This document shows positions 960 through 42,538 of a stretch of 42,844 bases of DNA, piece after piece. Below the pieces are notes generated by a model. The model was not told where the DNA came from, searched no databases, and saw only the letters and a program-made list of their open reading frames with translations. Both the position numbers and the translations under genes were made by a program. The first letter of the stretch is position 1; the number at the start of each line of letters is the position of its first letter. This DNA is from Stramenopiles sp. TOSAG23-2 (lineage: Eukaryota), in NCBI GenBank assembly GCA_900128395.1, contig LT649298.1:1-42844 (forward strand), in the 5' to 3' direction.

Positions 960-1277
960 GTCTATTACCGATTGAAGGGTTTCTTGCTTTGATAGTGATA
1001 AACCGTGTTAGTATGGAGTTTTATGTCAATTTCCATAGTAAACAATTATAAATGACGGACAACGGCGTTTTCCATTTTGCCAAAAAAATTCACAACCGGC
1101 GACGGATTCCAGAAAATCCACGGATTGTAGCCGTCGGTGATGTCCGTGGCCATCACTAAGCATCCTTTCTGGCCACAGTTTGTATATAGATACATACAGA
1201 AATAGAAATGCAATAATATAATATTCTTTTGCTTACATAAAAAGTAAAAAAAACAGATACAAACAGAATAAACAAAT

Positions 1278-5581: not shown

Positions 5582-5815
5582 TACTATTAATACCTTAAAC
5601 ATAAAAAACTACTATAAAAGCTAAAGTGCTAAAGCTTCTAGAAAAATAACTTTGGTTTGCACCTTTCTGCTTTTTTTCCATATCACATGATTCATCATTA
5701 ATACTAGCTACTACCTTAAAAATAAAAAACAAGAGTCTGACGACGCAGACTAGAGAAGCTATATATAAAATAACTTTGCGCCTTTTCTTCTGCTTTTCCA
5801 TATCATCACATGATT
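5582..5815. repeat. Diverged ~120-bp tandem duplication
   Basis: 5582-5700 and 5702-5815 share TACCTTAAA(C/A)ATAAAAAAC and AAAATAACTTTG...TTCTGCTTTT..CCATATCA..CATGATT. The second copy carries the GC hairpin at 5734-5751. Confidence 0.75.
5731..5753. repeat. Short GC-rich hairpin element, copy 1
   Basis: AAG-AGTCTG-ACGACG-CAGACT-AG; related copies at 22885-22905 and 32505-32531. Confidence 0.7.
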
Positions 5816-5818
5816 ATA

Positions 5819-6853
5819 TTATATAGCTTCATCATTGTTATCTTCTGCTTCTATTATTATTTTTTCATTTACATCTATGTTTTTTTTTTCACCATCATCA
5901 TCTACATTTTCTACTATACCTTCCCCATCAACTTCTTTAATAGCAGCATCTGGTCCTCCATCGTGATCTACGCCAACTTGTGTTTGTTTTACTTTACTAA
6001 ACATAGTCTTAGCCGATTTACCTGCTTTAAATTTATCTTTAAAAGAAGTCCATTTGGACTTTGCAGATTTAAATGTTTTTGCATATTTTTGTTCTAATTC
6101 TTTCCTATTTAAAGATGGATTCGCCGTGACATCCCATTTGTCTCTCTTATCAATTGTTAGACGCTTTGAGAAACCATCCCATTTTGAATTTATATATGCG
6201 TTTGATATTCCGTTTGCAAATGAATCTCCCTCATATAAAACTCCAACGCCTTCATCATCATGAGCAATTAATTCAACTTCATCATTTCTATTTGATCTTT
6301 GCATTGTAACTTTGGATTTTTTTAATTTTTCATTTAATGTATTCCATTCTACCCTTTCTTCATGCTCCGTCGCTTCCATGACTTCGCATGTGATTGGTAT
6401 TTTGTATAAACTTCGTTCAGTAATGATCTCAAGTACATTTGTAAACTTTCCAATTGTTTGACCGTAGATACCGATTGTAACAAATTGGCTACAACCTGGT
6501 GCTAATGTGAGTGCCTCTTTCGATATAACATATATACATTCCTCGTCAGAACATAAATGTTTTGGTTTAAATGCTTTGAGACGAGCTCTTGCTGTGAAAT
6601 TACTTTTATTCATTAATTTAACTTTTAATCGATATGTATGTTCTGCCAATATTGGCCCAAAATTTAATTTACCAGGACTTATACGAAAAACTGCCTCATC
6701 AGCAACATTTTCCCAACTTGGGTTATTACTGTAACGTTTTGTTTTATCCCATCCACTAGCAGTAGTCAATAGACGAGGTTCATAGCCTAATGACTTCTGA
6801 AATTTATATGATTCATTTTGTTTATATGGTTTTGCCGTTGTGCGATGGTGCAT
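5819..6853 (-). CDS. Flagellar-associated PapD-like/ASH-domain protein
   Basis: FRISPGKLNFGPILAEHTYRLKVKLMNKS...LAPG...LEIITERSLYKIPITCEV resembles the Ig-like ASH/PapD-like domain of ciliary proteins such as the SPAG17 C-terminus. Confidence 0.7.
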   Translation of the reverse strand: MHHRTTAKPYKQNESYKFQKSLGYEPRLLTTASGWDKTKRYSNNPSWENVADEAVFRISPGKLNFGPILAEHTYRLKVKLMNKSNFTARARLKAFKPKHLCSDEECIYVISKEALTLAPGCSQFVTIGIYGQTIGKFTNVLEIITERSLYKIPITCEVMEATEHEERVEWNTLNEKLKKSKVTMQRSNRNDEVELIAHDDEGVGVLYEGDSFANGISNAYINSKWDGFSKRLTIDKRDKWDVTANPSLNRKELEQKYAKTFKSAKSKWTSFKDKFKAGKSAKTMFSKVKQTQVGVDHDGGPDAAIKEVDGEGIVENVDDDGEKKNIDVNEKIIIEAEDNNDEAI

Positions 6854-7353
6854 GTTGATCTTTTTTTGTTTTGTTTTTTTGGAATAGCTTTCGTATATAT
6901 ATATATATATATATATATAGGAGTGGAGAGATACAAACTTTTTGAAATGTGATTGTTATTTTTATTATTATAATTGTGGTTGTTTTAATGTGGTATACAT
7001 TATGTTTTGACAGCATTTTTTTTGGTTATTTTGTGATATATACTAATTTGGTTAATACTGGTATATATAACTGATATAACGTGTTGTTGTATAGTTGTGC
7101 TCACTATATTATAATACTGCAAGCTCTAGCTATTTATTTCTTATTTGTACTGTGCTACTGTCCTCCTCTGCTAGTTTCTTTTTTCTACCTGCTATTCCCT
7201 TGCTCTATGTTAAGGCTATGCTGGAGAATCATTGTGCTGTATGCCTGCTATGTGCTATTTCCATGTTAATTTATTAAAGACTACTTATATCAAGAAATTA
7301 CAACTTTTTGTAACAATCAATAGCTTGCAAAGGTCAAACTTTGCATCTGATGC

Positions 7354-7512
7354 GTCAACTTGGCCGAGTGGTGTACGTGTAATCTAACAAATATAAAAAT
7401 TGTAGATCGGTTCTCTAACAACAAAACACCTTAATTTAAAAAAATGCAGCTAAGGCGCCAGTTTCAAGCACTGGTATTTTCGAATGCGTGGGTTCGAACC
7501 CCACAGTTGACA
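7354..7512 (+). tRNA. tRNA-Leu(CAA) with a 77-nt GT-AG intron in the D-loop (exons 7354-7372 and 7450-7512)
   Basis: Joined exons give an 82-nt cloverleaf: acceptor GTCAACT/AGTTGAC (7/7), D-arm GCCG-AGTGGT^CTA-AGGC, anticodon stem CCAGT/ACTGG with loop TT-CAA-GC, long variable arm TATT-TTCG-AATG, T-arm GTGGG-TTCGAAC-CCCAC, discriminator A, followed by TTTCTTTTT. Confidence 0.95.
7373..7449 (+). other. Putative spliceosomal (U2-type) intron inside the tRNA gene
   Basis: Starts GTACGT, contains TTCTCTAAC (7411-7419) and AATCTAAC (7381-7388), ends ATGCAG. Exact GT..AG removal restores the canonical Leu D-loop AGTGGTCTAAGGC. Confidence 0.8.
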
Positions 7513-7521
7513 TTTCTTTTT
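7513..7521 (+). terminator. Pol III oligo-T terminator of tRNA-Leu
   Basis: TTTCTTTTT immediately after the discriminator base. Confidence 0.75.
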
Positions 7522-7869
7522 GCTTTTGCGGACACTGTTTTATCACTTCTTCTTGTTCTGCTGGTATCAGTGTTTTTTTTTTTGCCCTGGTTGTTGTTTT
7601 TTTGGCCTGTGTATTTTCTTTTGCCTGGTTTTGTTTCATTTCATTTTGTTTGCCATTCTGCTTCCCCTTTCTTCTGATAGTTGTCTCTTTCTTCTGCTCT
7701 TCCTTTTCTTCTCCCTACGAAACAAAAAACAAATAGAAACAAATAGCTATTATAGTTGTGAAATTTAACTCTCTCTCTCTGATCTATCAAAAAGAAAGGA
7801 CGGCCCCTTTTCGTCGCCTCCTTGGTACAACCCTATAATCTAACCTTCTCTAGTTTCTATTTTATATGT

Positions 7870-8061
7870 ATTCTTATAGTAATTATATGTTCCTAGTTAA
7901 TATTATTTCTATGTATTATTATATGTATTATTAAGTATTTATATGTTGTCTGTACCTTAATATTTATATTGTATTGTTATATGATTATATGTTAATGTTT
8001 CCTATTTTTAAGTTATTTGTCTGTTTTTCAGTACGAACCTATTCGTAAGAATGTTTTGGGA
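7870..8061. mobile_element. Dispersed AT-rich repeat, MITE-like, copy 1
   Basis: Aligns with 17351-17522, including the identical run AATGTTTCCTATTTTTAAGTTATTTGTCTGTTTTTCAGTA and then GAACCTATTCGTAAGAATGTTT. Ends show an inverted ATTCTTA...TAAGAAT. Confidence 0.7.
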
Positions 8062-8292
8062 TCAAAAAAAAAGCTCACATCTTCTCATCATCACATCAAA
8101 ATAATTGATAATTGTATGGATACACGTACACATTATTCCAATACACAATCAAACACACATAAACATTATGTGTAAATATACCAGATATATCACATACAAA
8201 AGATAATATAATAAACACAAAAGTAGACTTTATATTGACATTATTAAAAATATCCCTTATAAAGTAATCGCCCTCACAAACAAGTGTTATAT

Positions 8293-8652
8293 ATGAATGA
8301 TAATCAAAACATATATGCCACACCTGCTGGATCTAATGCAGTCAATAATAATAATAATAATAATGATATTATTAACATTACAAATAATGGGGTTTCACCC
8401 TCTCCACGCACACCACAAAGTACAAATATGAACTCTTTCTCCAATAGTAACTTTCCATTCCCAACACCACCTCCTAATTTAGGACAACGAACATATGATT
8501 TTGATGGGAAACCGGAAGAATGGAAAAAATATCAACCAAATGGTAAAGGAGTCTTGCTGCGTAGAAGATTGACAGATGGATTTCACGAAGTGGAATTAAA
8601 TAATTGGAAAGGAATTTTATACATCAAAACACTTTCAATTGATTTACCATAA
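8293..8652 (+). CDS. Hypothetical protein (~119 aa)
   Basis: ATG at 8293 after an A-rich leader; Asn/Pro-rich N-half like other genes here; compact C-terminal segment (GKGVLLRRRLTDGFHEVELNNWKGILYI) suggesting a small beta domain. Confidence 0.6.
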   Translation: MNDNQNIYATPAGSNAVNNNNNNNDIINITNNGVSPSPRTPQSTNMNSFSNSNFPFPTPPPNLGQRTYDFDGKPEEWKKYQPNGKGVLLRRRLTDGFHEVELNNWKGILYIKTLSIDLP

Positions 8653-8912
8653 AAGTAAAAAAATAGAAAAAAAAGAGAAGTGTGTGTGTGTGTGGTTGTG
8701 AAAAAAAAATGAACACGGGTATAAAAAATGTGGCACCACGTGTAATTTATAAATTTTTAATATATTAGTATAATTAATAACCATCATTATTATAAAAAAA
8801 TTAATTTAAAAATATCATATTAATATTACACGAAGTATCATACGAGTAATTATCTTTATTAATACATAGAGTACGAGTCGTACTGACATTAGTTTAAAAC
8901 TCTCTCAGAAAG

Positions 8913-8916
<4 letters not shown>

Positions 8917-8947
<31 letters not shown>

Positions 8948-8950
8948 CTC
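8917..8950. repeat. (AC)n/(CT)n microsatellite
   Basis: ACACAC... run followed by CTCTCT just 3' of the TTC12 stop codon. Confidence 0.9.
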
Positions 8951-8964
8951 TTGCCACTCTCCTC

Positions 8965-11727
8965 TTACAATCCTAATTCTTTGCCAAGTGTCATTAATAT
9001 TTCAACTCCCCTTAATTGACGTATTTTTTCATTCAGTTTTGGATGCCGACATAATCTTGCTAAAACAATAGCAGTATTTTTTCGTGTTGGCCCATCTCCA
9101 CAACCTTTTAATACTTCAATAACATTTTCTATTAATCCCATGTCGGCCATTTCTTCTATAATAGGATCCTTTACATCCTGTACACATGGTATCAACGTCT
9201 TCATGGCGTTACCTACTAAATTAGACATTTCTTTATTTTTTTTCAATTTTCTGTTTTTAGCTAAATCACCAGCAGCTTTAATAATCTCGACTAATTTATT
9301 TCCTCCTTTCTTTTTACGTAAAATTTCCCGCAAAGATTTTTCTCCATCTTTCATGCATACGGCAACTACACGAATCAAATGACCTAATGTATCTCCTTCT
9401 GACATCACAACGACATCGACTAATAATTCAAATGCATGTGGTTCGCAAAGTTTCTGGCGTCCTTCAAGATCCAAAGAACACCGTGCAAGCAAACCTGCAG
9501 AACGAACATATACATCTTGTCCATGTGTCAGCCCTTTCATACCGAGGAGCAGAAGCAATAATGGTACTGCTCCTTGTTTTACAAGAAGTGAGCGTACTCC
9601 TTGATAAACAGTAGCTGGAGTATCCTCTTGTTGGACTGCACCATTCATCAACGCTGCAAGTGCGTTTGATTGTGTTATTTCACCATCTACTTTCCCGCCA
9701 GCACCGCCAAGGACGGTCAGTAAGCCACGGATAATATCAGCTTTCGCTAAATGTTTCCTAAATTTAGCATTTATCATTAAATTAGCTAATAGCCGTGTAA
9801 GCGCTTCTCGTGCCGTCGGTGTCAACGATGTATTTTTTGAATCAGTAGTTGATTTCAACAACAATGTCCCACTTATTTCTACAAGATCCCGTTTGAAAGA
9901 TGAAGTCGCGTCGTAAAAAAAATCCCTATCGACTGACGTCAAAGCCAATGTACTTAATGCACCTGCGCAAGCGGCAATTACTTTCGAATTTTCCGTCCCA
10001 ACTAAAAGTTCAACTAAGCAAGGGATAATATCCTTATATTTCGGTTTATGAAGTTGCTTTTGTGTAAAGGTGTGTTCAACAGTAGTTTCAAAAAATAAGC
10101 CAATGGCAAGTGCAGCGTCAACATCAATTTTACCATCTTCGGTTGATATAACAGCTACACAACGTGAATTGCATGCTGCCAACGCTTGCTTTTTAATAAA
10201 CAATTGCTGGTTTTTTCGATTGATGCAACTTGATGTTAATACTTTCAACAAGGCAATATCAAATTTTCTGCGTTTGCTTTTGACAAATGAAGCATCTTCC
10301 AACAAGAAGAGTTCCAACAATTTCTCAAAATTACCAGATGATCTAAAATATATTCGTGAATTTTCTTTATCCGACAATACATCAGCCAATGCATTAAAGC
10401 TGGTTTTTATGGCCGTTGCATCTTTACTATTTAACTTCTCCATCAATTTATCAATTAAACCAAATTCAGTTGGTCGTTTTGGAAGCGCTTGTGAGCTCGT
10501 TGTTGTTGTTGCTGCTGCTGCTGGAGGTGGTGGCGCTGTTGTTGAAGCCGTAGTGTTTACTTCAACAGGTTCTTCTTTTTTCTCATCATCTTTTATCTGT
10601 TTATTGCCCATATTATTATTATTATTATTATCATTATTATTATTACTTTTAGTTTCCATCGTTGTACTAGTTGCAGTTTTTCCCGTCATCTTTGTATCTT
10701 TTAAATTTTTAGATTTCTCAAGGGAATTGCTATTTGCTTTCTTTGCATCCTCACTGACCTGAATTGCATTTTGTACAAACAATTCACCTTTCACTTCTTC
10801 CCATTCTTCCATTAATTTGACTCGTTCTTTTTGCAACGATTCATTTTCTGGTTCAAATTTCAAACCTTCATCCAAATCATCTAATGCTTCCTGATACATT
10901 TTTTTTCGTCGTTTGGCTAATGCGCGTCTTGAATATGCTTTTACCCATGTTGGTTTTAAAAATAATGCACGCGTACAGTATTCGATCGCATCATCATAAT
11001 TTTTCAATTTGAGATGGCATTGTGCCATATTTGACAATACAGGTACTAAATATGGTATCTCATCCAGGGCTTCTTGATACCGTCTTAATGCCTTTTCATA
11101 ATCGCGCTTTTTAAACGCTTTATTGCCTTTTTGTTTTTGAACCTCTGCCGTTGTTGCTTTTCTGGTCTTCGTTTTTTCCCTTTTTTTCATATCGTCAATA
11201 AAATTATTACAAAACTCAGGATTATTTTTTTCAAATAAAGCATCTTTTCCTTTATTAATTTCTTTCTCCTTTGCTCTTAGTTCTTCCAATGACACTGGAT
11301 CATCCGGGATCCATTTTTCCCACATGGAATAATCAAGGCAATCTTTGCCTTTTTGCTTTGGTTGTGGGAATTTATAACCTTCGATTTCAACTGGCTCTAC
11401 AACTTCTCGTTGATTTTTTTTTTCCTCAAGGTCTTCCATTCTATATCGTGCACCTTTCCACCATTTTTCATGTTCTTCCTTTTTCTCCTTAGCTTTACGC
11501 TCAGCCTTTTCTTTCGCTCTTCGAGCTTTTTCCTCAGCTTCTTCTTGCAATTCCTCAGGTGTTTTTTCGCCAGGAACCCTAACATCTTCCGGCTTCAATT
11601 CCCCACTTTGCAACATATCTAGTTGCCTTTGCACATCGTTTACTTTGGATAAAAACGCATTAATATCACCATCTTTCACACCAGTACGTTTTTCCAAATC
11701 TAATAAATTATCAACATTTAATGACAT
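8965..11727 (-). CDS. TTC12: TPR + armadillo-repeat protein, TTC12-like (dynein assembly factor family)
   Basis: N-terminal DINAFLSKVNDV helix, three TPRs (KQKGNKAFKKRDYEKALRRYQEAL; LSNMAQCHLKL; VKAYSRRALA), long ARM region ending RKNTAIVLARLCRHP...IRQLRGVEIL. Confidence 0.85.
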   Translation of the reverse strand: MSLNVDNLLDLEKRTGVKDGDINAFLSKVNDVQRQLDMLQSGELKPEDVRVPGEKTPEELQEEAEEKARRAKEKAERKAKEKKEEHEKWWKGARYRMEDLEEKKNQREVVEPVEIEGYKFPQPKQKGKDCLDYSMWEKWIPDDPVSLEELRAKEKEINKGKDALFEKNNPEFCNNFIDDMKKREKTKTRKATTAEVQKQKGNKAFKKRDYEKALRRYQEALDEIPYLVPVLSNMAQCHLKLKNYDDAIEYCTRALFLKPTWVKAYSRRALAKRRKKMYQEALDDLDEGLKFEPENESLQKERVKLMEEWEEVKGELFVQNAIQVSEDAKKANSNSLEKSKNLKDTKMTGKTATSTTMETKSNNNNDNNNNNNMGNKQIKDDEKKEEPVEVNTTASTTAPPPPAAAATTTTSSQALPKRPTEFGLIDKLMEKLNSKDATAIKTSFNALADVLSDKENSRIYFRSSGNFEKLLELFLLEDASFVKSKRRKFDIALLKVLTSSCINRKNQQLFIKKQALAACNSRCVAVISTEDGKIDVDAALAIGLFFETTVEHTFTQKQLHKPKYKDIIPCLVELLVGTENSKVIAACAGALSTLALTSVDRDFFYDATSSFKRDLVEISGTLLLKSTTDSKNTSLTPTAREALTRLLANLMINAKFRKHLAKADIIRGLLTVLGGAGGKVDGEITQSNALAALMNGAVQQEDTPATVYQGVRSLLVKQGAVPLLLLLLGMKGLTHGQDVYVRSAGLLARCSLDLEGRQKLCEPHAFELLVDVVVMSEGDTLGHLIRVVAVCMKDGEKSLREILRKKKGGNKLVEIIKAAGDLAKNRKLKKNKEMSNLVGNAMKTLIPCVQDVKDPIIEEMADMGLIENVIEVLKGCGDGPTRKNTAIVLARLCRHPKLNEKIRQLRGVEILMTLGKELGL

Positions 11728-12553
11728 ATTATCAAAAGCACCAATTTATTTATATGAGTATTCAATATGGTTCTCTCTGTCTGTGTGTGTGTTTGTGTGT
11801 ATATGTCGTACGTTACTTCAATTATTCTTTTATTCAATAATGTACATACATATATATATATATATATATATGAATCAGTTGTGATTTCGTGTTTGTTATC
11901 TGATATTATATGTTATCATATCTATTTAACCGATGATTTTTTTTTGAATTGCTGTGCTAATTTAATTTGCATGCAATTATCATTTTTTGTCATCATAATA
12001 ATATCGCCTTGTAATCCCCTGGTATTTTTGAAATCAAAAAATGTTTCCAGAAGGAATACAGTATAGTACCAAAGTAGAATGTAGATCCAGCAACTATTGT
12101 GTAAAATACAGTATGACTTTTAAATCCTCTCTCTACCTTAAACTATCATCAAAAGAATGGAGAGAAATGGTGGAAGAGGAGGGCCAGGTTAAGGTACAGA
12201 GGAGTGAACAAAATAATGGATCACAATTATCATTTCTACTACTATCGGATTCAAAATAAAACCACATACTGGGCATACCAGCATACCAGTACTGTAATGT
12301 AATATTCTTCTTCGCTCTAATATGCCTATACAGGTACTATATTGCCACACGCCATGTGGATTGTTGCGCTACTATTATTCTTCTTCATTATTAATATTCA
12401 ATATTTTTTTTTCTAAATATATATATATTTTAAAATTAATTTATAGACAAAACAACACATGAACAAAAACAATACAATACGATATCATCAAGTATAATAT
12501 TTACAAAATACAAGAGACAAACAAACAAAAATTCTAAACAAAAGAAAATCAAT

Positions 12554-31022: not shown

Positions 31023-31598
31023 TGTGTTGTGTGTGTGTGGTTTAACTTTAATATTTTGTTTGGAGTTGTATATGTGATCCTAAAGGATGAAGAATGTATA
31101 GATATTGTATATATCTCTTTGTACCTTTATATACATAGAAAAGATATTTTTATTTACACATAAGACTTTTCTGGTTTTTGTCTAACCAGATGTGCAGCTG
31201 TAAAGAATTAATCGCCTCAAATATATATATCTTTTACACTTTTTCCGATTTTTGATATCATCTTAGAAGAAATAATATTTAATATTGGTATAGGACTGGA
31301 ATAATATTAATAGGAGAAGGCCAGGAAGGACACTAGCGAGCTACTGTACCTACTGTACCACCTGGTAATACTATGGTACTATAAATAAATCAGTTATACA
31401 CATTCTTCTTCAACTACTTTACCAGGTATTATTTTTTTATATGTTAATGTGTACTATTATATTATAATACATTAATTCAATTATTCAATTAATAACATCC
31501 ATAAATAAAAACCATACTAGACGACTATATCCAAACATATAAATACTGACACCCCACAAAACAAAACAAAACAATATCCATACAAGAATATAAAAACA

Positions 31599-32120
31599 AT
31601 GAAACAAAATACTTCCCCAAAGGAACAAAAAATATCCAAGCAAAAACCTATAATAATAGATGAAATAAACAACCATGATGGAAATGAAAGTGATAGTGAT
31701 ATTTCAGAACATTATATGGATGTACGTCAATCCATGTCAGTTGATGAAGTACTTGATGAAATGCCCCCAAAAATATTTGACATAAAACATGTTATGAAAA
31801 AAAAAAGGAACCAACGTACCATAGAAGAAAACAATGCCATTAAAGATTTTGTTGTATCTGTTAAATTTTTTCGACAAGCTATTCATACTGGACAAGTATC
31901 AATAGATGCAATGGATGATATCTGTGCTAACATTCGAATGAAAGTCTATGAAAAAAACTCAATTGTATTTCGTCAAGGAGATCCAGGAGATGCATTTTAT
32001 ATAGTCGTTGAAGGTTTAACACATGTATTGATAAATCCCGAGGGTGGTTTTAGTAAAACTGATGATGAAAAATTTGCAGAGGAAGTCATGAAAGATTTTG
32101 AAGAGGAGTTGTTGTCGTAG
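31599..32120 (+). CDS. Cyclic-nucleotide-binding domain protein, apparently 3'-truncated
   Basis: KKRNQRTIEE helix and VFRQGDPGDAFYIVVEG; the ORF stops before the FGE...R phosphate-binding cassette. Confidence 0.7.
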   Translation: MKQNTSPKEQKISKQKPIIIDEINNHDGNESDSDISEHYMDVRQSMSVDEVLDEMPPKIFDIKHVMKKKRNQRTIEENNAIKDFVVSVKFFRQAIHTGQVSIDAMDDICANIRMKVYEKNSIVFRQGDPGDAFYIVVEGLTHVLINPEGGFSKTDDEKFAEEVMKDFEEELLS

Positions 32121-36110: not shown

Positions 36111-39100
36111 CTACTTTAGCATTGGATTTTTTACTATCATCATTGACTCCCTGGTAAGACTACTATCTTCCCATTCTTCTTCTAACCTTTGTTTGGTTAG
36201 TCTTTTTCGTAGGATTTGCATATCTTTTGCTTGGCTTTTGTTATCATCCCGTAGATCTTTAATATCATCCCGTAGCTCTTTAATATCATCCAGTAGCTTA
36301 CTGTTTTCATCTCGCAGCTTGTTATTTTCATCCTTTAGCACGGAAATATATTCTTTTTCACCACCAACCATACTGGAACGGACAATTTCATTCAACTCAA
36401 CACTTTTATCCAATGGATTGGTAACCCATTCAACCTGCGAAGCTCGTAACCATATTCCAATTCCTTTACTGCAACAAGGGCGGCAAATGCGCCAAGAAGC
36501 GATGGTAGCACACACATTTTTTGCCGAACCAGTGAGCCTGCCGCGATTCTCCATCCACGAAAGCCATACATATGTACCCAATCCTACAAACGAACAGATA
36601 ATGTTCATTGCCAGAACAACTGCCTCCCCGACGAGACAGATATAGTGCGCCAACGACTCTTCTGACCGGCATTGCGGATAAACGACGAAAATTCCACCAA
36701 TCCACAAGGTCAGAAAGCAGCAAGTCAGTAACAATATCTCTAACCGCGACAGCATTTTTGTCTGAAAAGGTTGTGCCAGCACCGTGTGCACCAACAACAT
36801 ACCCACCACACCTATAGACAGCAAGACTTGTAGCTTTCCAACGAAGATGCCAATGACAATAACAGATACCTTTCTGACGACCACCCACACTTCGTGCATG
36901 TAATTTTCACGCTTAAACCCATCATAGAGCAATCCTAGACGTATGCGCGTCCTCGGCTCGTTTAGCTTGTTACGAAATTTGTAGAGCAATGCTACGGAAG
37001 CCAATGGCAGCCCTATGACGTAGCCCAGAATACCGGGTACGCCGACTCCCCATACCCATGCTTGATGGGTTGGATCATCGCACAAGGTTTCTGGGTCAAC
37101 AATGAAGATGGAGCCAACCCCCTTCACCTCTTGACATCTCCACAAGGACAACACACTGGAGCAAATGGATGGATAGACCAAATATAACAAGAGTACAATG
37201 GTGCCTGTTAGCATTGCTCGCCGTTTTGATGCGTGAATCACTCTACCGCAAGTGCACCAACCTATCACAGACAGGCATGCCAACACAGGGGGAAGAAGTA
37301 CATAAGCAAGTGTCTTGTAATATTCTACAGCTGCAATGGAGATAGGCTCGTCCATTGCACAACGAACATCAATAAACTCTTTTCCCACTGAAGAAAGCAT
37401 GCTTTGAACTTTAAAGACCGCTAAATAGTTGCCAGGCCATGGAATCTGCATGGTTGTAGACAGCGCAGCCAGCTGGAGGAAGGAAATAAAGATTTTCTTC
37501 GCACCATCAGAGTTTTTAAATGCCCCACCACGTTTTACCACCGTCGTCCATACCAAAAATAGAAGACATAGGAGCAACATAAACCCAAACACAAAAGGAA
37601 GCGTTTTGTTCAGTCCACGCTCGCCGCATTGTTTACATTTTCCCGTCCCATCTCGGCTGTATCCAGGCAAGCAATCAGCACATAGAGTAGAATTAGCACG
37701 GTATCCAGAGCTTTCATGACAACCTTCTGGATGATTTTCATTTTTCACCACTGGGTCTTGGCATTTTCCGTGCGGGTTGACAGCCCCTAAACAGGCACAT
37801 GCATACAAACAGGGTATAAAGTCAATCGAATTTGGAACGCGCCAGTACCCTGTCAAAGCCAAGATACCGGAAGCATCCGTGCCTCCTGGGCAGAATGCCC
37901 CCACCGGGCAGGTAATGCATTGTCTGTTTTCCAGATACTGGTTTGGAGGACATGTATTGGGGCAATAATTTTCCACCGTTCCCGTTGCATTCGACATCCC
38001 ACCGGGCAGGTAATGCATTGTCTGTTTTCCAGATACTGGTTTGGAGGACATGTATTGGGGCAATAATTTTCCACCGTTCCCGTTGCATTCGACATGCCAG
38101 GTTCGTTACCATATCTTCCTGCTGGGCAGGCGAGACAGGCAGAACCCATTACCGATTGACCCGTGAACGCTCCAAATCTAGCCACTGGACAGTCTACGCA
38201 AGCGCTAGATTCAAGACTTTTTTCAACTAAATTGGATATTTTTTTGCCATATTTGCCTGATGGACATGGGGTTTTCAAACCGTTGCTGCAATAAAAACCA
38301 TCCGGACAGACCAAACAGTCACTTTCAGAGGTCTGACCAATGTGGGAGCCATACTTTCCACGTTCGCATATAAATTCACAAACTTCTTCAAGGGTGGTTT
38401 TACCTGTTGCATCTCCGTACCGACCCAACGGGCATGTGTTCAGACATCCTTTGTCTACAGAAGAAGCTCCTGTGACATTTCCATACCTTCCACCAGGACA
38501 TTTCAGCAAGCAGGAGGTTTGACCTGTGGAAGGGTTGTATCGCCCTACAGCACAGCTTACACATGCTTTTGACTCCAGAATTTTGCCCGCCTTGGTTCCA
38601 TAGGTACCTGTTGGACAGTCGTGACAGGCGGATACGTTGGCTCCATACTTTCCTGGCTGACATCCGACAAAGCATATGACGCCTTCATTCGGGTTGGGTT
38701 TGTTGACGCAGATGGGGTTTGTGTACCCATTGGAGACGCACAGGGTCGGGGTGCATCTGGTGGGAGGGATGAACAAAGATGCACTTTGATGGTCACTTAT
38801 GTTTTCCCCCAAAAACTGTTTTCCCGTTGCATTTACATATGAAAATTCAGCGTTAATCAGTGTAATCGATGGGGTCCCCTGATTTGGTCCTTTAGTCATC
38901 ATCTGATGTCCACGCCCGTTACTTGCCTCATTTAGTAGAAAGAAAGAATCATAAGCTGTCAAAACCGCCGAACGCATAAGGTATATTCCTCCTCCTCCGT
39001 ACAGACTAGTTGCATCCGTCTGCATGTTTTGGGTTAAATTGACGTTTCCTAAGATTACATTTCCATTGCTTATAAAGATACCGCCACCACGACCGGTGGC

Positions 39101-42100
39101 TTGATTGTTCCTAATTGTTGAGTTAAAGATTTGCCCTACAGCATTTTCTACTACAGAAATTGCCCCGCCAGTAGCTTGCATTGCTTGATTATTAAAGAAA
39201 AGGCATTTGTTCGCGTAAAGTCTGGAACTAGTGCCGCTGATGAGCACAGCACCACCACTCCCCACTCCACCCGTCAGGTTCAAACTCTTCAACACCAGTT
39301 CCCCACCGCTCTCGAGTTTAAAGAGACGGTTGTGACCCGCACCTATCAATTTTGGCAGCACCCCTTCAGCATTTGGCACTCCCGTCACATTCAATTTTTC
39401 CGTCACGACAATTTCATAGTACATGACGCAATCGCTGGTGATGGTAAAATTTCCCGCTCGTAGAATGGAACACGGCGGGGGTAGATTCTCACAGACCACA
39501 CCTTCGTCTTTGTTTGGCTTGTCTACACAGTATTGGGTGTACAAAGGGTTGTCGGCGTTGACGTTTTGGAGGGCTGCTCCGTTGGTGAATGAAATGTCGG
39601 ATAAGTCCTCGAAAGTATTGTCATTTATATTTATAAGATGCAGTTTGGACTTAGAACAGCACAACGATATTGCCTCGCCAGATTTTGTTTCGCTTTCACT
39701 AACTACTAATTTGTTGCCAGTGAATGAAGAACCTTGTCCCAGAATGTAAATGTAATTTTCGAAAGCTCCGTCTTCCCAACTTTTAATTGCCCCACCAGTT
39801 CCTGGGGGATAATATGTATAATTCGACCTCGCAACATTATTTGAGTATATTGTATCCACGCTCACCAATGTACAGCTTCCTATAAGCAAAGCTCCACCCT
39901 GACCAGCAACATTTTTATCTAAAACACATTTGTCTAATTTCAACACACCATCACATTGAATTGCCCCGCCACTGTGACTGTTGATACCCCCAGTCAACTC
40001 CAAACTCTCTAGCACCAATTCACCCCCGTTTACATAAAAAAGACGATTCGACCCACCTCCATGCACTTTGGGCAATCTTCCATCCGCGCTGGGAATCCCA
40101 ACCACTTCTAAAAAATCAACCACGGTGATTTGCGTTGCCTGAATACAATCTTGCGAGATAGTGAATCGTCCAGAGGTGGGAATGTTGCAGGGCGGTTTAC
40201 ATAATACTCCTTCGTTTTGGTTGGGTTTGTCTGCACACACGTAGGAAGCTGGGTAGTCATTGTCTTCGCACTGGGTTGGGGTGGCGGAGCAATCAGAAGG
40301 CTTTTGTCCTTCGAACGAACCGTCATAGTAGCTATTGATGAAATAAACGTCTGCTGTGTCAGCGACAATTCCCCCCCCAAAAGATAATGTTACGTCTTTT
40401 AATTGTCCAATATATTTTCGAGTACCTTCAGACCAATCGCCAACTAAAATATTTCCTGGTGCATCTGCAATTGTTATTGGGGCATCCTTTGTGCCCATGT
40501 GTACTCCATCTACATACAATGAAAACGTTCCGCCATTACCGGTATGGTTGCATACAACTTCATGCCAGGCATCAAGTGATACATTGCCAGAGGCAATAGA
40601 ATCACCCGAAAGACTTCCCATTAAATAACATCTTATTTTTTGTTGTAACAACAATACTTCAAAACCATAATTGGTCTTAGATTTAGCAACAATTTCCCTG
40701 AAATGCGTACTCGCATGGTTGCTAGAAATTTTCATGGAGAACGATATTGACCTCAGTTTATTGGCATGAAAATGTATGCCTGTGTCTATGTAACCATTTC
40801 CGTCGAACGTTAAAACACCATTTGCATCGGTTTGTACACTATTGGTACCCCCTTCGACACTCATACTACTTTTCACAGCGTCGTTTGCAATATAATAATT
40901 TTCTGCAGTTCGCACTGCTGCACTTGTATGCTCCCCCCCCGTCAAGTTCAAATACTTCACCACCAGTTCCCCGCCACTCTCGACTTTGAAAAATCGGTTG
41001 GACCCTCCGCCGATGATTTTTGGCAAGTTTCCTTGGGCATCTGGGATACCCGTGACGTTTAATTTGCCCGTAACATGGATTTGGTTGTAGAGGATGCAAT
41101 CGCCGGTGATAGTGGCGGAACCGCTGGTGGGAATGGGGCATGTGGGCTTGGGACATGCATCGGTCTCGGAGGTCTTTCCTTCTACTGCTCCATATTTACC
41201 GATAGGGCAAGTTGATGGGCAACCTTCGGCTTCCGTTGTTTTATTAATTAAATTGCCAAACTTTCCAGCTGGGCAGGAGGTACACGTGCCTGTGGATGAG
41301 GGTTGAGTATGTCGATTGCTCGCTGTCATGATAGTAGTTGGCAATTTTGTTCCATATGTTCCCGGTAGACATGGAAGCGTTATGTATGAAGTACCATCGG
41401 TTGAAATTACACTTTCTGCGGTCGACAGTGCTCCTGGATAACTAACACCTTGGTTATTTGCGACAACAGACCTTTCATTGACATAGCATTTCGATTTGTC
41501 ATAACAATGAAATCCACCACCCGAATTTGCTTTTGTTGCTTCATTCTTTGTAATAATAGTCGCATTAAAAACGCATTCTGCGCTAGAACGACAGTCTAAA
41601 CCACCACCTTGGCCAGCGCTTACATTATTTTCAGAAACAACCGAGTTTACCATGGTCAATTTGGCACCAGAAATAGCAAGCCCACCACCACAGTGCTCTG
41701 CCCAATTTTTTTCTACGATTGAAGATTCTATATTAAGAGTAGCAGAACCGCGTCCGTAAATCGCACCCCCACATCGCCCAGCTTTATGATTATCAAAAAT
41801 ACTATTGTAAGCCAATAAAACACTTGTGGGTCCGGCAATATAAACGGCACTACCCATCCAACAATATCCACACGACGAGAGACTAGTTGTATCACCCCCT
41901 GTAAGCCTTAAATTTCTTAAAATTAGCTTTCCAGTTTCAAAAACGGTAAAAAAGCGATGCTTGGTGGAGGTATCCGCTCTTGATATTGTTGCTAAGTCTT
42001 TTCCTAACTTTGTGCCATTGATTTCTAGTCTACTACTGTTGATACATACTGAACTTTGGTGAGTGTAACGCCCAACAACGCAATCCCCAACACTTAGCGC

Positions 42101-42229
42101 ACAATCTGAACTCAGGAAAAAAGCACCAGATATTTGAGGGCTGGAACAGTCCCACTCCGTTTGCGCACCCACCGTGCCTACGCATATCGTGACCATAAAA
42201 AATAATATGTTGTATGTTGGTAATTTCAT
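36111..42229 (-). CDS. Giant modular surface protein (signal peptide, Pmp-like beta-helix repeats, LamG/ConA-like domain, GCC2/GCC3 Cys-rich repeats, ~7 TM, coiled-coil tail), frameshifted by a 98-bp duplication
   Basis: ORFs 37853-42229 and 36111-38063 join into one 2006-aa frame (6119-98=6021 nt) if one duplicated copy is removed. GGAI/F..N.A repeats, C..CP.G.YG repeats and GLLYDGFK...HEVWVVVRK in the TM region. Confidence 0.85.
36238..36340 (-). repeat. Degenerate 21-bp coding repeat (heptad coiled coil)
   Basis: Encodes KDENNKL-RDENSKL-LDDIKEL-RDDIKDL-RDDNKSQ. Confidence 0.8.
37900..38095. repeat. Exact 98-bp tandem duplication
   Basis: 37900-37997 equals 37998-38095 (CCCACCGGGCAGG...TTCGACAT). 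Confidence 0.97.
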
Positions 42230-42538
42230 ATTTTTTTTCTTTTATTTTAAATGGTTCAAAGGTTTTTTTCTCGCGTCAATACTCTTACATTCTGCTCAAA
42301 AAACAATCCGCAACTCTGCGTATTCTTCCACGCTCAAGAGATGTGTATATAAATATTTATGTTTATGTAATGGTTATCGATTATGAATTATTATTTATTA
42401 CTTATTATTAATTAATAAATTATAACACATGCATCATTATATTACATGCATGCGTAATATATATATATATTAAATATTAAATAATGATTAATTATTAACT
42501 AATAATTATATTTAATACTGGACACCCATTGCCCCATT

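Follow-up and report, generated by a model that had tools for sequence, protein, structure and literature searches.

A tRNA-Leu(CAA) gene of an uncultured marine protist is interrupted in the D-loop by a 77-nt insert that carries the sequence hallmarks of an ordinary messenger RNA intron. The insert starts with GTACGT, has a CTAAC branch motif 31 nt (branch A) before its end and terminates in CAG. Exact in silico removal restores a perfect 82-nt tRNA. A homologous insert is found at the same position in a tRNA-Leu(AAG) gene, a second insert is found in the T-loop of a near-identical haplotype of the first gene, and three further contigs of the locus lack the D-loop insert precisely. These results suggest that the inserts are genuine U2-type spliceosomal introns in tRNA genes (probability about 0.62), although the evidence is at the sequence level and not at the RNA level. 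No precedent was found in the literature searched, which covers few subscription journals and did not include supplementary files such as the appendix figures on atypical tRNA introns of PMC13578239.

Results

A tRNA-Leu(CAA) gene split by a GT-AG insert

The window, i.e. the whole stretch of 42,844 nt of DNA analysed (contig LT649298.1), was examined for the structure of the interrupted gene. Joining the two exons in silico gave a tRNA-Leu(CAA) which was called by ARAGORN with a full cloverleaf, having a 7-bp acceptor stem, a 3-bp D stem, a 5-bp anticodon stem, a long variable arm and a 5-bp T stem. The exon letters on either side of each junction differ from the ends of the insert, and thus no other cut points give this product. 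The A box, the B box and the T runs following the gene are all intact. The sequence-only reading, which had described an intact tRNA-Leu interrupted in the D-loop by a spliceosomal-type GT-AG intron and had expected standard tRNA finders to miss or mis-call it, is confirmed as to the observation. ARAGORN found no tRNA gene in the raw sequence of the window and, when introns were allowed, mis-called a tRNA-Val(AAC). Rfam detected nothing at gathering score, and with a loose threshold the 3′ part reached only 22 bits against a cut-off of 29. As a chance control, the frequencies of the three signals were multiplied over all 85,534 77-mers of the window, giving a product of 1.8e-7. The only 77-mer carrying all three signals is the insert itself.

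Features of the interrupted tRNA-Leu genes. L001 and L002 are the metagenome contigs described in the text.
Sequence	Position	Strand	Feature	Remarks
Window	7354..7372	+	tRNA-Leu(CAA) exon 1 (19 nt)	Acceptor 5′ strand, D-stem 5′ strand, and D-loop up to nucleotide 20
Window	7361..7371	+	A box	tRNA positions 8-18; assigned by reading the sequence
Window	7373..7449	+	D-loop GT-AG insert (77 nt)	Between tRNA nucleotides 20 and 20a; ends TGCAG; A-rich (A 35, T 21), no run of four T
Window	7373..7378	+	5′ splice site GTACGT	GTAAGT in L001 and L002
Window	7384..7388	+	Upstream CTAAC	12-16 nt into the insert, kept in all 3 D-loop inserts; probably too close to the 5′ site to act as the branch (inferred)
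Window	7415..7419	+	CTAAC branch motif	Branch A at 7418, 31 nt before the 3′ site
Window	7447..7449	+	3′ splice site CAG	First AG after the branch motif
Window	7450..7512	+	tRNA-Leu(CAA) exon 2 (63 nt)	Rest of the D-arm, anticodon arm (anticodon 7465-7467), long variable arm, T-arm, acceptor 3′ strand and discriminator A
Window	7491..7501	+	B box	
Window	7495..7496	+	Empty T-loop site (nucleotides 56/57)	Carries the second insert in L001
Window	7517..7527	+	T5 (7517-7521) and T4 (7524-7527) runs	Directly after the tRNA; terminator-like for Pol III (function inferred)
Window	7241..7733	+	Smallest span covered by the spurious ORFs P0162, P0166 and P0201	From other public contigs that lack the D-loop insert; either a long spliced transcript or insert-less DNA alleles
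L001	753-829		D-loop insert (77 nt)	Starts GTAAGT
L001	876-938		T-loop insert (63 nt)	GTAAGT...CTAAC...TAG; between nucleotides 56 and 57, splits the B box
L001	1195-1792		598-nt element with inverted ends	Absent from the window (7753/7754)
L002	2735-2888		tRNA-Leu(AAG) gene	
L002	2754-2825		D-loop insert (72 nt)	GTAAGT...CTAAC...CCAG

Homologous and additional inserts in related contigs

To find relatives of the interrupted gene, metagenome contigs were scanned with exon 1 plus GT, a gap, and AG plus exon 2, and two contigs were obtained. The first, L001 (2058 nt), is the same locus in a close haplotype. It is 98.8-99.6% identical to the window downstream, and about 95% identical upstream and in the first 30 nt of the insert. 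L001 carries the D-loop insert and a second insert in the T-loop, and removal of both gives a tRNA identical to that of the window (82 of 82). The second, L002 (5023 nt), carries a tRNA-Leu(AAG) gene with a homologous insert at the same D-loop position, and its flanking genes are unrelated to those of the window. Single excision restores a perfect tRNA in this gene also. The D-loop inserts of L001 and L002 are identical at 59/62 positions over their first 62 nt, while the exons of the two genes differ much more, exon 1 at 3 of 19 positions and exon 2 at about a third. The inserts are therefore young or homogenised, and intact exons do not prove function. Exon conservation between the window and L001 (0/82 differences against 5/77 in the intron, Fisher p=0.025) is likewise weak evidence, because divergence changes sharply along the region.

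Single and double GT...AG excision followed by ARAGORN, carried out on both strands of the window, L001 and L002 (1904 and 1140 variants), revealed only the three Leu genes. No other copy of either insert occurs in the 50 kb of this organism's DNA examined. The exon/GT...AG/exon pattern and an exact 23-mer of the insert gave no hits in collections of genome contigs and viral contigs, which are not expected to hold this organism.

The inserts carry spliceosomal signals and lack bulge-helix-bulge geometry

All 4 inserts, representing two independent positions, start with GTA[A/C]GT, carry CTAAC with its branch A 31, 31, 26 and 18 nt from the 3′ end, and end in YAG. In 4 of 4 this AG is the first after the CTAAC. 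The bulge-helix-bulge (BHB) geometry needed by the tRNA endonuclease was tested in both possible registers. The central 4-bp helix forms 0-2 of 4 pairs for 4 of 4 inserts, the outer and inner helices mostly fail, and minimum-free-energy folds do not place the two cut sites in bulges. The inserts lie at 20/20a and 56/57, and not at position 37/38, one nucleotide 3′ of the anticodon, where canonical eukaryotic tRNA introns are found. With lengths of 63-77 nt they are also far from group I or group II introns, which have a conserved catalytic core of several hundred nt and usually lie in the anticodon loop, and Rfam gave no intron family even at E<=1 on window 7000-8000, L001 or L002.

The inserts have no terminal inverted repeats, and comparison of the T-loop insert with the empty site in the window shows at most 1 shared nucleotide. 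In contrast, the 598-nt element of L001, a true transposon polymorphism 240 nt away, does have inverted ends. The inserts are A-rich on the sense strand (for the T-loop insert 33 A to 12 T, binomial p=0.002). The longest T run in the 4 inserts is 2-3, but as background segments of the same length lack a run of four T 43-49% of the time, this is only suggestive.

Contigs from which the D-loop insert is precisely absent

A protein search with a spurious open frame running from the last codons of the insert through exon 2 (7435-7674) returned gene-caller proteins from other public contigs of this locus, and a full phmmer search and a cluster look-up added two more. The other 34 of the 38 phmmer hits are frames over ordinary tRNA-Leu genes of other organisms and match only the tRNA part, as judged from seven that were inspected.

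Spurious proteins encoded by other public contigs of the locus.
Protein	Length	Source	Contig	D-loop insert	T-loop insert
P0162	138 aa	ENA	944 nt	absent	absent
P0166	77 aa	ENA	552 nt	absent	present, read through in frame
P0201	143 aa	ENA	1008 nt	absent	present, read through in frame
P0163	136 aa	NCBI	5820 nt	3′ end present	absent
P0164	131 aa	ENA	875 nt	3′ end present	present

P0162 reads the upstream flank, exon 1 and then exon 2 directly. Its residues 1-41 match window 7250-7372, and residue 42 onward matches 7450 onward. P0166 is 60/60 identical to the in silico D-spliced form of the window and 71/76 to the D-spliced, T-retained form of L001. P0163 and P0164 start in the last two codons of the D-loop insert, so their contigs hold at least its 3′ end. 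Over seven contigs, the D-loop insert is present in 4 (window, L001, P0163, P0164) and absent in 3, the T-loop insert is present in 4 (L001, P0164, P0166, P0201) and absent in 3, and all four combinations occur.

The insert-less contigs are either spliced RNA or DNA without the insert, and these could not be told apart. All 3 contigs over 2 kb (window 42.8 kb, L001 2.06 kb, the contig of P0163 5.8 kb) hold at least the 3′ end of the D-loop insert, whereas all 3 insert-less contigs are short ENA contigs. ENA contigs of the Ssl1 gene of this organism are mostly 1.6-2.9 kb with complete ORFs, and look like transcripts. The occurrence of all four combinations over a 46-nt exon is easier to obtain from partial splicing than from recombination. 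On the other hand, the sharp change in divergence inside the insert indicates that recombination happens here, and the insert-less contigs differ from the window and from each other in their flanks, so they come from other haplotypes. RNA was judged the likelier origin, but only to a degree. Either way, the absence is exact at the predicted GT and AG, as would be given by an intron through splicing, through reverse-transcriptase-mediated loss, or as the state before gain. If the contigs are RNA, the molecule is long, reaching at least 113 nt upstream and 220 nt downstream of the tRNA, past the T runs, and would be a Pol II-type transcript rather than a Pol III pre-tRNA. The T-loop insert is retained in 2 of 2 insert-less-for-D contigs from T+ alleles (P0166, P0201), and nothing shows that it is ever removed. 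Fourteen marine RNA sequencing runs hold 0.44-0.53 of the sampled words of window 5800-11800, which by itself is no evidence about splicing.

Genomic context and host introns

The window is 33% G+C, and about three quarters of it consists of long single-exon ORFs for ordinary eukaryotic proteins, namely S10 carboxypeptidase, Snf7 (two copies), Ufd2, a REV1-like polymerase, TFIIH Ssl1, a hydrolase and a PapD-like flagellar-associated domain protein. A viral origin of the window was not supported, as no relatives of Ssl1 were found among viral contigs and the gene content is cellular. The closest relatives of Ssl1 (99, 85 and 80% identical) are environmental sequences, some with EukProt-style gene names, and the best named hits, from plants and oomycetes, are only 38-39% identical.

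Motif and open-frame scans for mRNA introns gave no convincing case in about 14 genes of the window and 2 genes of L002. A candidate at 962-1197 (minus strand) was rejected, since the upstream 'exon' is AT-rich non-coding sequence and the downstream ORF starts at its own ATG. The cNMP-binding ORF 31521-32117 is a truncated fragment and not a spliced gene, and the Ssl1 gene is colinear with 4 database proteins. In 12 ORFs with 799 Leu codons, UUG makes up 27% and CUU+CUC 15%, so both tRNAs are in demand.

Discussion

The D-loop insert is best explained as a genuine U2-type (GT-AG, CTAAC-branch) spliceosomal intron inside a nuclear tRNA-Leu(CAA) gene of an AT-rich, intron-poor protist. It belongs to a small set of such introns in the tRNA-Leu genes of this organism, one at nucleotides 20/20a in both a Leu(CAA) and a Leu(AAG) gene, and another at nucleotides 56/57 that is present in some haplotypes and absent in others. 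In the inferred mechanism, U1 pairs with GTA(A/C)GT and U2 with CTAAC in the transcript of the locus, the first AG downstream is used, the intron leaves as a lariat and the exons are joined exactly. RNase P and RNase Z would then trim the ends, and CCA addition would give the tRNA. As no host mRNA intron was found for comparison among the genes scanned, a working spliceosome in this host is assumed. The transcript that gets spliced may be a long Pol II-type RNA running through the gene rather than, or as well as, a Pol III pre-tRNA. The sequence-only reading, which inferred that the pre-tRNA is matured by the U2 spliceosome, is partly supported. Its core, a spliceosomal-type intron rather than a BHB/TSEN intron or a dead random insertion, is backed by the sequence evidence. 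That an intact A box, B box and terminator imply a Pol III precursor is not shown, and supply of the tRNA by an intron-less copy, which that reading had named as a refutation, stays possible because the insert-less contigs could be DNA. The introns probably entered, and moved between Leu genes, through reverse splicing or gene conversion, but this is speculation.

A less likely explanation is that the inserts are young, intron-like sequences, introner-like or reverse-spliced, which landed recently in tRNA-Leu genes and disable the copies they hit, the tRNA being supplied by insert-less alleles or copies. The T-loop insert varies between haplotypes that are 99% identical around it, destroys the B box, and is retained in P0166 and P0201. 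Insert-less versions of the locus exist, all four combinations of the two inserts are seen, and the D-loop inserts of two different isoacceptor genes are about 95% identical, which implies recent spread. However, the same exact position in two different Leu genes is not expected of a random inserter. The inserts have no transposon ends or target duplications and no other copy in the 50 kb examined, and no introns were found in about 32 kb of coding sequence against 1-2 in an 82-nt gene. At least the 3′ end of the D-loop insert is present in 4 of 4 contigs that are not insert-less, representing at least 2 upstream haplotypes, and the restriction of the D-loop-insert-less state to short ENA contigs fits RNA better than DNA alleles.

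Removal by the tRNA splicing endonuclease and a ligase through a relaxed BHB, or by another endonuclease-ligase route of the IRE1 type, appears very unlikely. D-loop and T-loop positions are where ectopic BHB-type introns occur in Cyanidioschyzon merolae, Chondrus and the Guillardia nucleomorph (PMC3978253, PMC13578239), and tRNA introns in all eukaryotes described so far use this enzyme (PMC12530127, PMC10275265). However, the BHB test fails for 4 of 4 inserts, no CNG|CNGN loop motif is seen at either junction on reading the sequence, and the GTAAGT, CTAAC and first-AG signals at two independent positions would be an unexplained coincidence. An assembly artefact is refuted by the presence of the same insert in L001, a homologous one in L002, and its 3′ end in the contigs of P0163 and P0164.

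The closest known systems are the mRNA-type introns in snRNA genes, in U6 of Schizosaccharomyces pombe and many fungi, and in U1, U2 and U5 of Rhodotorula hasegawae (PMC5855946). These also have canonical 5′, branch and 3′ sites inside a small structured non-coding RNA gene. In S. pombe the Pol III transcript of U6 is spliced by the spliceosome, and fungi have up to four such introns per U6 gene, which come and go between species. Reverse splicing is their proposed origin, and what determines insertion into non-coding RNAs is unknown. Like U6, the gene in the window combines Pol III promoter elements and terminator-like T runs with an insert lacking an internal T-run terminator, though in L001 the B box is split. 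A tRNA is not part of the spliceosome, so closeness to the catalytic centre cannot explain insertion here, and the same intron sits in two different tRNA-Leu genes. Section 14 of that paper lists snRNA and rRNA genes as hosts and does not mention tRNA. Spliceosomal introns in rRNA genes of lichen-forming fungi (Bhattacharya et al. 2000, cited in PMC5855946) likewise lie in a gene not normally transcribed by Pol II, but the RNA class and the polymerase (Pol I) are different.

The ectopic tRNA introns of C. merolae, Chondrus crispus and the Guillardia theta nucleomorph also interrupt nuclear tRNA genes outside position 37/38, including at 20/21 in the D-loop and in the T-loop, sometimes with several introns per gene, and are missed by standard tRNA finders. 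Those introns are flanked by a BHB and cut by the tRNA endonuclease, whereas the inserts described here carry GT/AG ends with a CTAAC motif. The tRNA introns of P. tricornutum are listed for eight amino acids, none of them Leu (PMC3531208), and the one phrase hit in the literature was to 'non-spliceosomal tRNA introns' in a Mesodinium preprint. Introners without transposon features, which are short (<200 nt), non-coding intron families of algae and fungi possibly spread by the spliceosome (PMC11146597), share with the present inserts the lack of TIR or TSD, near-identical copies in different genes (here only two tRNA-Leu genes), variation in presence between close relatives and a marine source. 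For the D-loop insert, such variation is only possible, and holds if the P0162-type contigs are DNA. Known introners, numbering tens to thousands per genome, sit in protein-coding genes, while only tRNA-Leu genes are seen in the 50 kb examined here.

Nuclear tRNA introns are described in reviews as removed only by the protein tRNA endonuclease and a ligase, and spliceosomal, tRNA and XBP1-type introns are treated as three unrelated classes (PMC12530127, PMC10275265, PMC13578239). A spliceosomal intron inside a tRNA gene would break that separation, would extend the U6 precedent to an RNA that is not part of the spliceosome, and would mean that genome annotation misses functional tRNA genes in some protists. 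It is possible, though this can be held only tentatively, that this lineage carries a new class of tRNA intron, true spliceosomal introns at several positions of tRNA-Leu genes, which are still being gained, lost and copied between tRNA genes within a species complex, the tRNA being made by spliceosomal splicing of a long Pol II-type transcript (or of a Pol III transcript) followed by RNase P/Z release. That would make it a natural system for watching spliceosomal intron gain in a structured non-coding RNA. As the inserts vary in presence between near-identical haplotypes and are shared by two isoacceptor genes, the locus could show how new spliceosomal introns arise, and also whether a tRNA can be produced from a spliced Pol II transcript.

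Variation at the tRNA-Leu locus

The window was compared with L001, a metagenome contig carrying the same locus in a near-identical haplotype. An element with imperfect terminal inverted repeats is present in L001 and absent from the window, in flanks that are otherwise 99% identical. It looks like a MITE-type insertion polymorphism, possibly with a 2-nt target duplication. Divergence between the two haplotypes drops sharply about 30 nt into the D-loop insert, from about 5-7% (14 mismatches in 278 nt, all in the upstream flank and the first 29 nt of the insert) to 0.4-1.2%. This change suggests a recombination or gene-conversion boundary inside the insert.

Coordinates of the features in the window and in the metagenome contigs L001 and L002 (the latter carrying a tRNA-Leu(AAG) gene).
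Sequence	Position	Strand	Feature
L001	1195-1792		598-nt element with imperfect terminal inverted repeats
Window	7753/7754		Position compared with L001 1195-1792; element absent
Window	7219-7402		Segment of higher divergence (together with 7403-8018, against L001 599-2058)
Window	7403-8018		Segment of lower divergence (together with 7219-7402, against L001 599-2058)
L001	876-938		T-loop insert
Window	7513-7527		Sequence after the tRNA-Leu(CAA) 3′ end
L002	2889-2905		Sequence after the tRNA-Leu(AAG) 3′ end
Window	31521-32117	+	Cyclic-nucleotide-binding ORF
Window	37900-38099		98-nt tandem duplication (2.0 copies, 99% matched)
Window	36114-38105 and 37856-42241	minus	Two long overlapping ORFs

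The T-loop insert was also compared between L001 and the contigs behind P0164, P0166 and P0201, which are gene-caller proteins from other public contigs of this locus. The A-run near the start of the insert differs between the four contigs and, as inferred from the translations, is A7 followed by C, A9, A10, or A6 plus two extra letters. The difference is either neutral variation in a non-coding segment or homopolymer error. Public protein collections hold many such spurious proteins that are translations across tRNA-Leu genes, as seen with P0167 (1098 aa) and 33 other hits of the protein search. One has 7 repeated tRNA-Leu-like stretches, probably a tandem tRNA array. Such entries can be used to recover variants of non-coding loci.

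The sequences downstream of the Leu(CAA) and Leu(AAG) genes were compared as well. The first 10 nt after the tRNA 3′ end are identical in the two genes, although their 5′ leaders are unrelated. This could be a shared terminator context or the trace of a common origin.

Protein-coding genes and gene density

The 98-nt tandem duplication lies where the two long overlapping ORFs change frame. This part of the window (36-42 kb) is 44-46% G+C against about 33% elsewhere, and encodes a large Laminin_G_3 / ephrin-receptor-like protein. The cyclic-nucleotide-binding ORF stops in mid-domain. A 718-aa environmental homologue (P0001, 63% identical) matches only its residues 29-157, and nothing further in the window continues it. 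It is probably a gene fragment or a short paralogue. No spliceosomal intron could be found in about 14 protein-coding genes of the window or 2 of L002, and about 75% of the window is single-exon ORF, which is unusually intron-poor and compact for a free-living marine protist.
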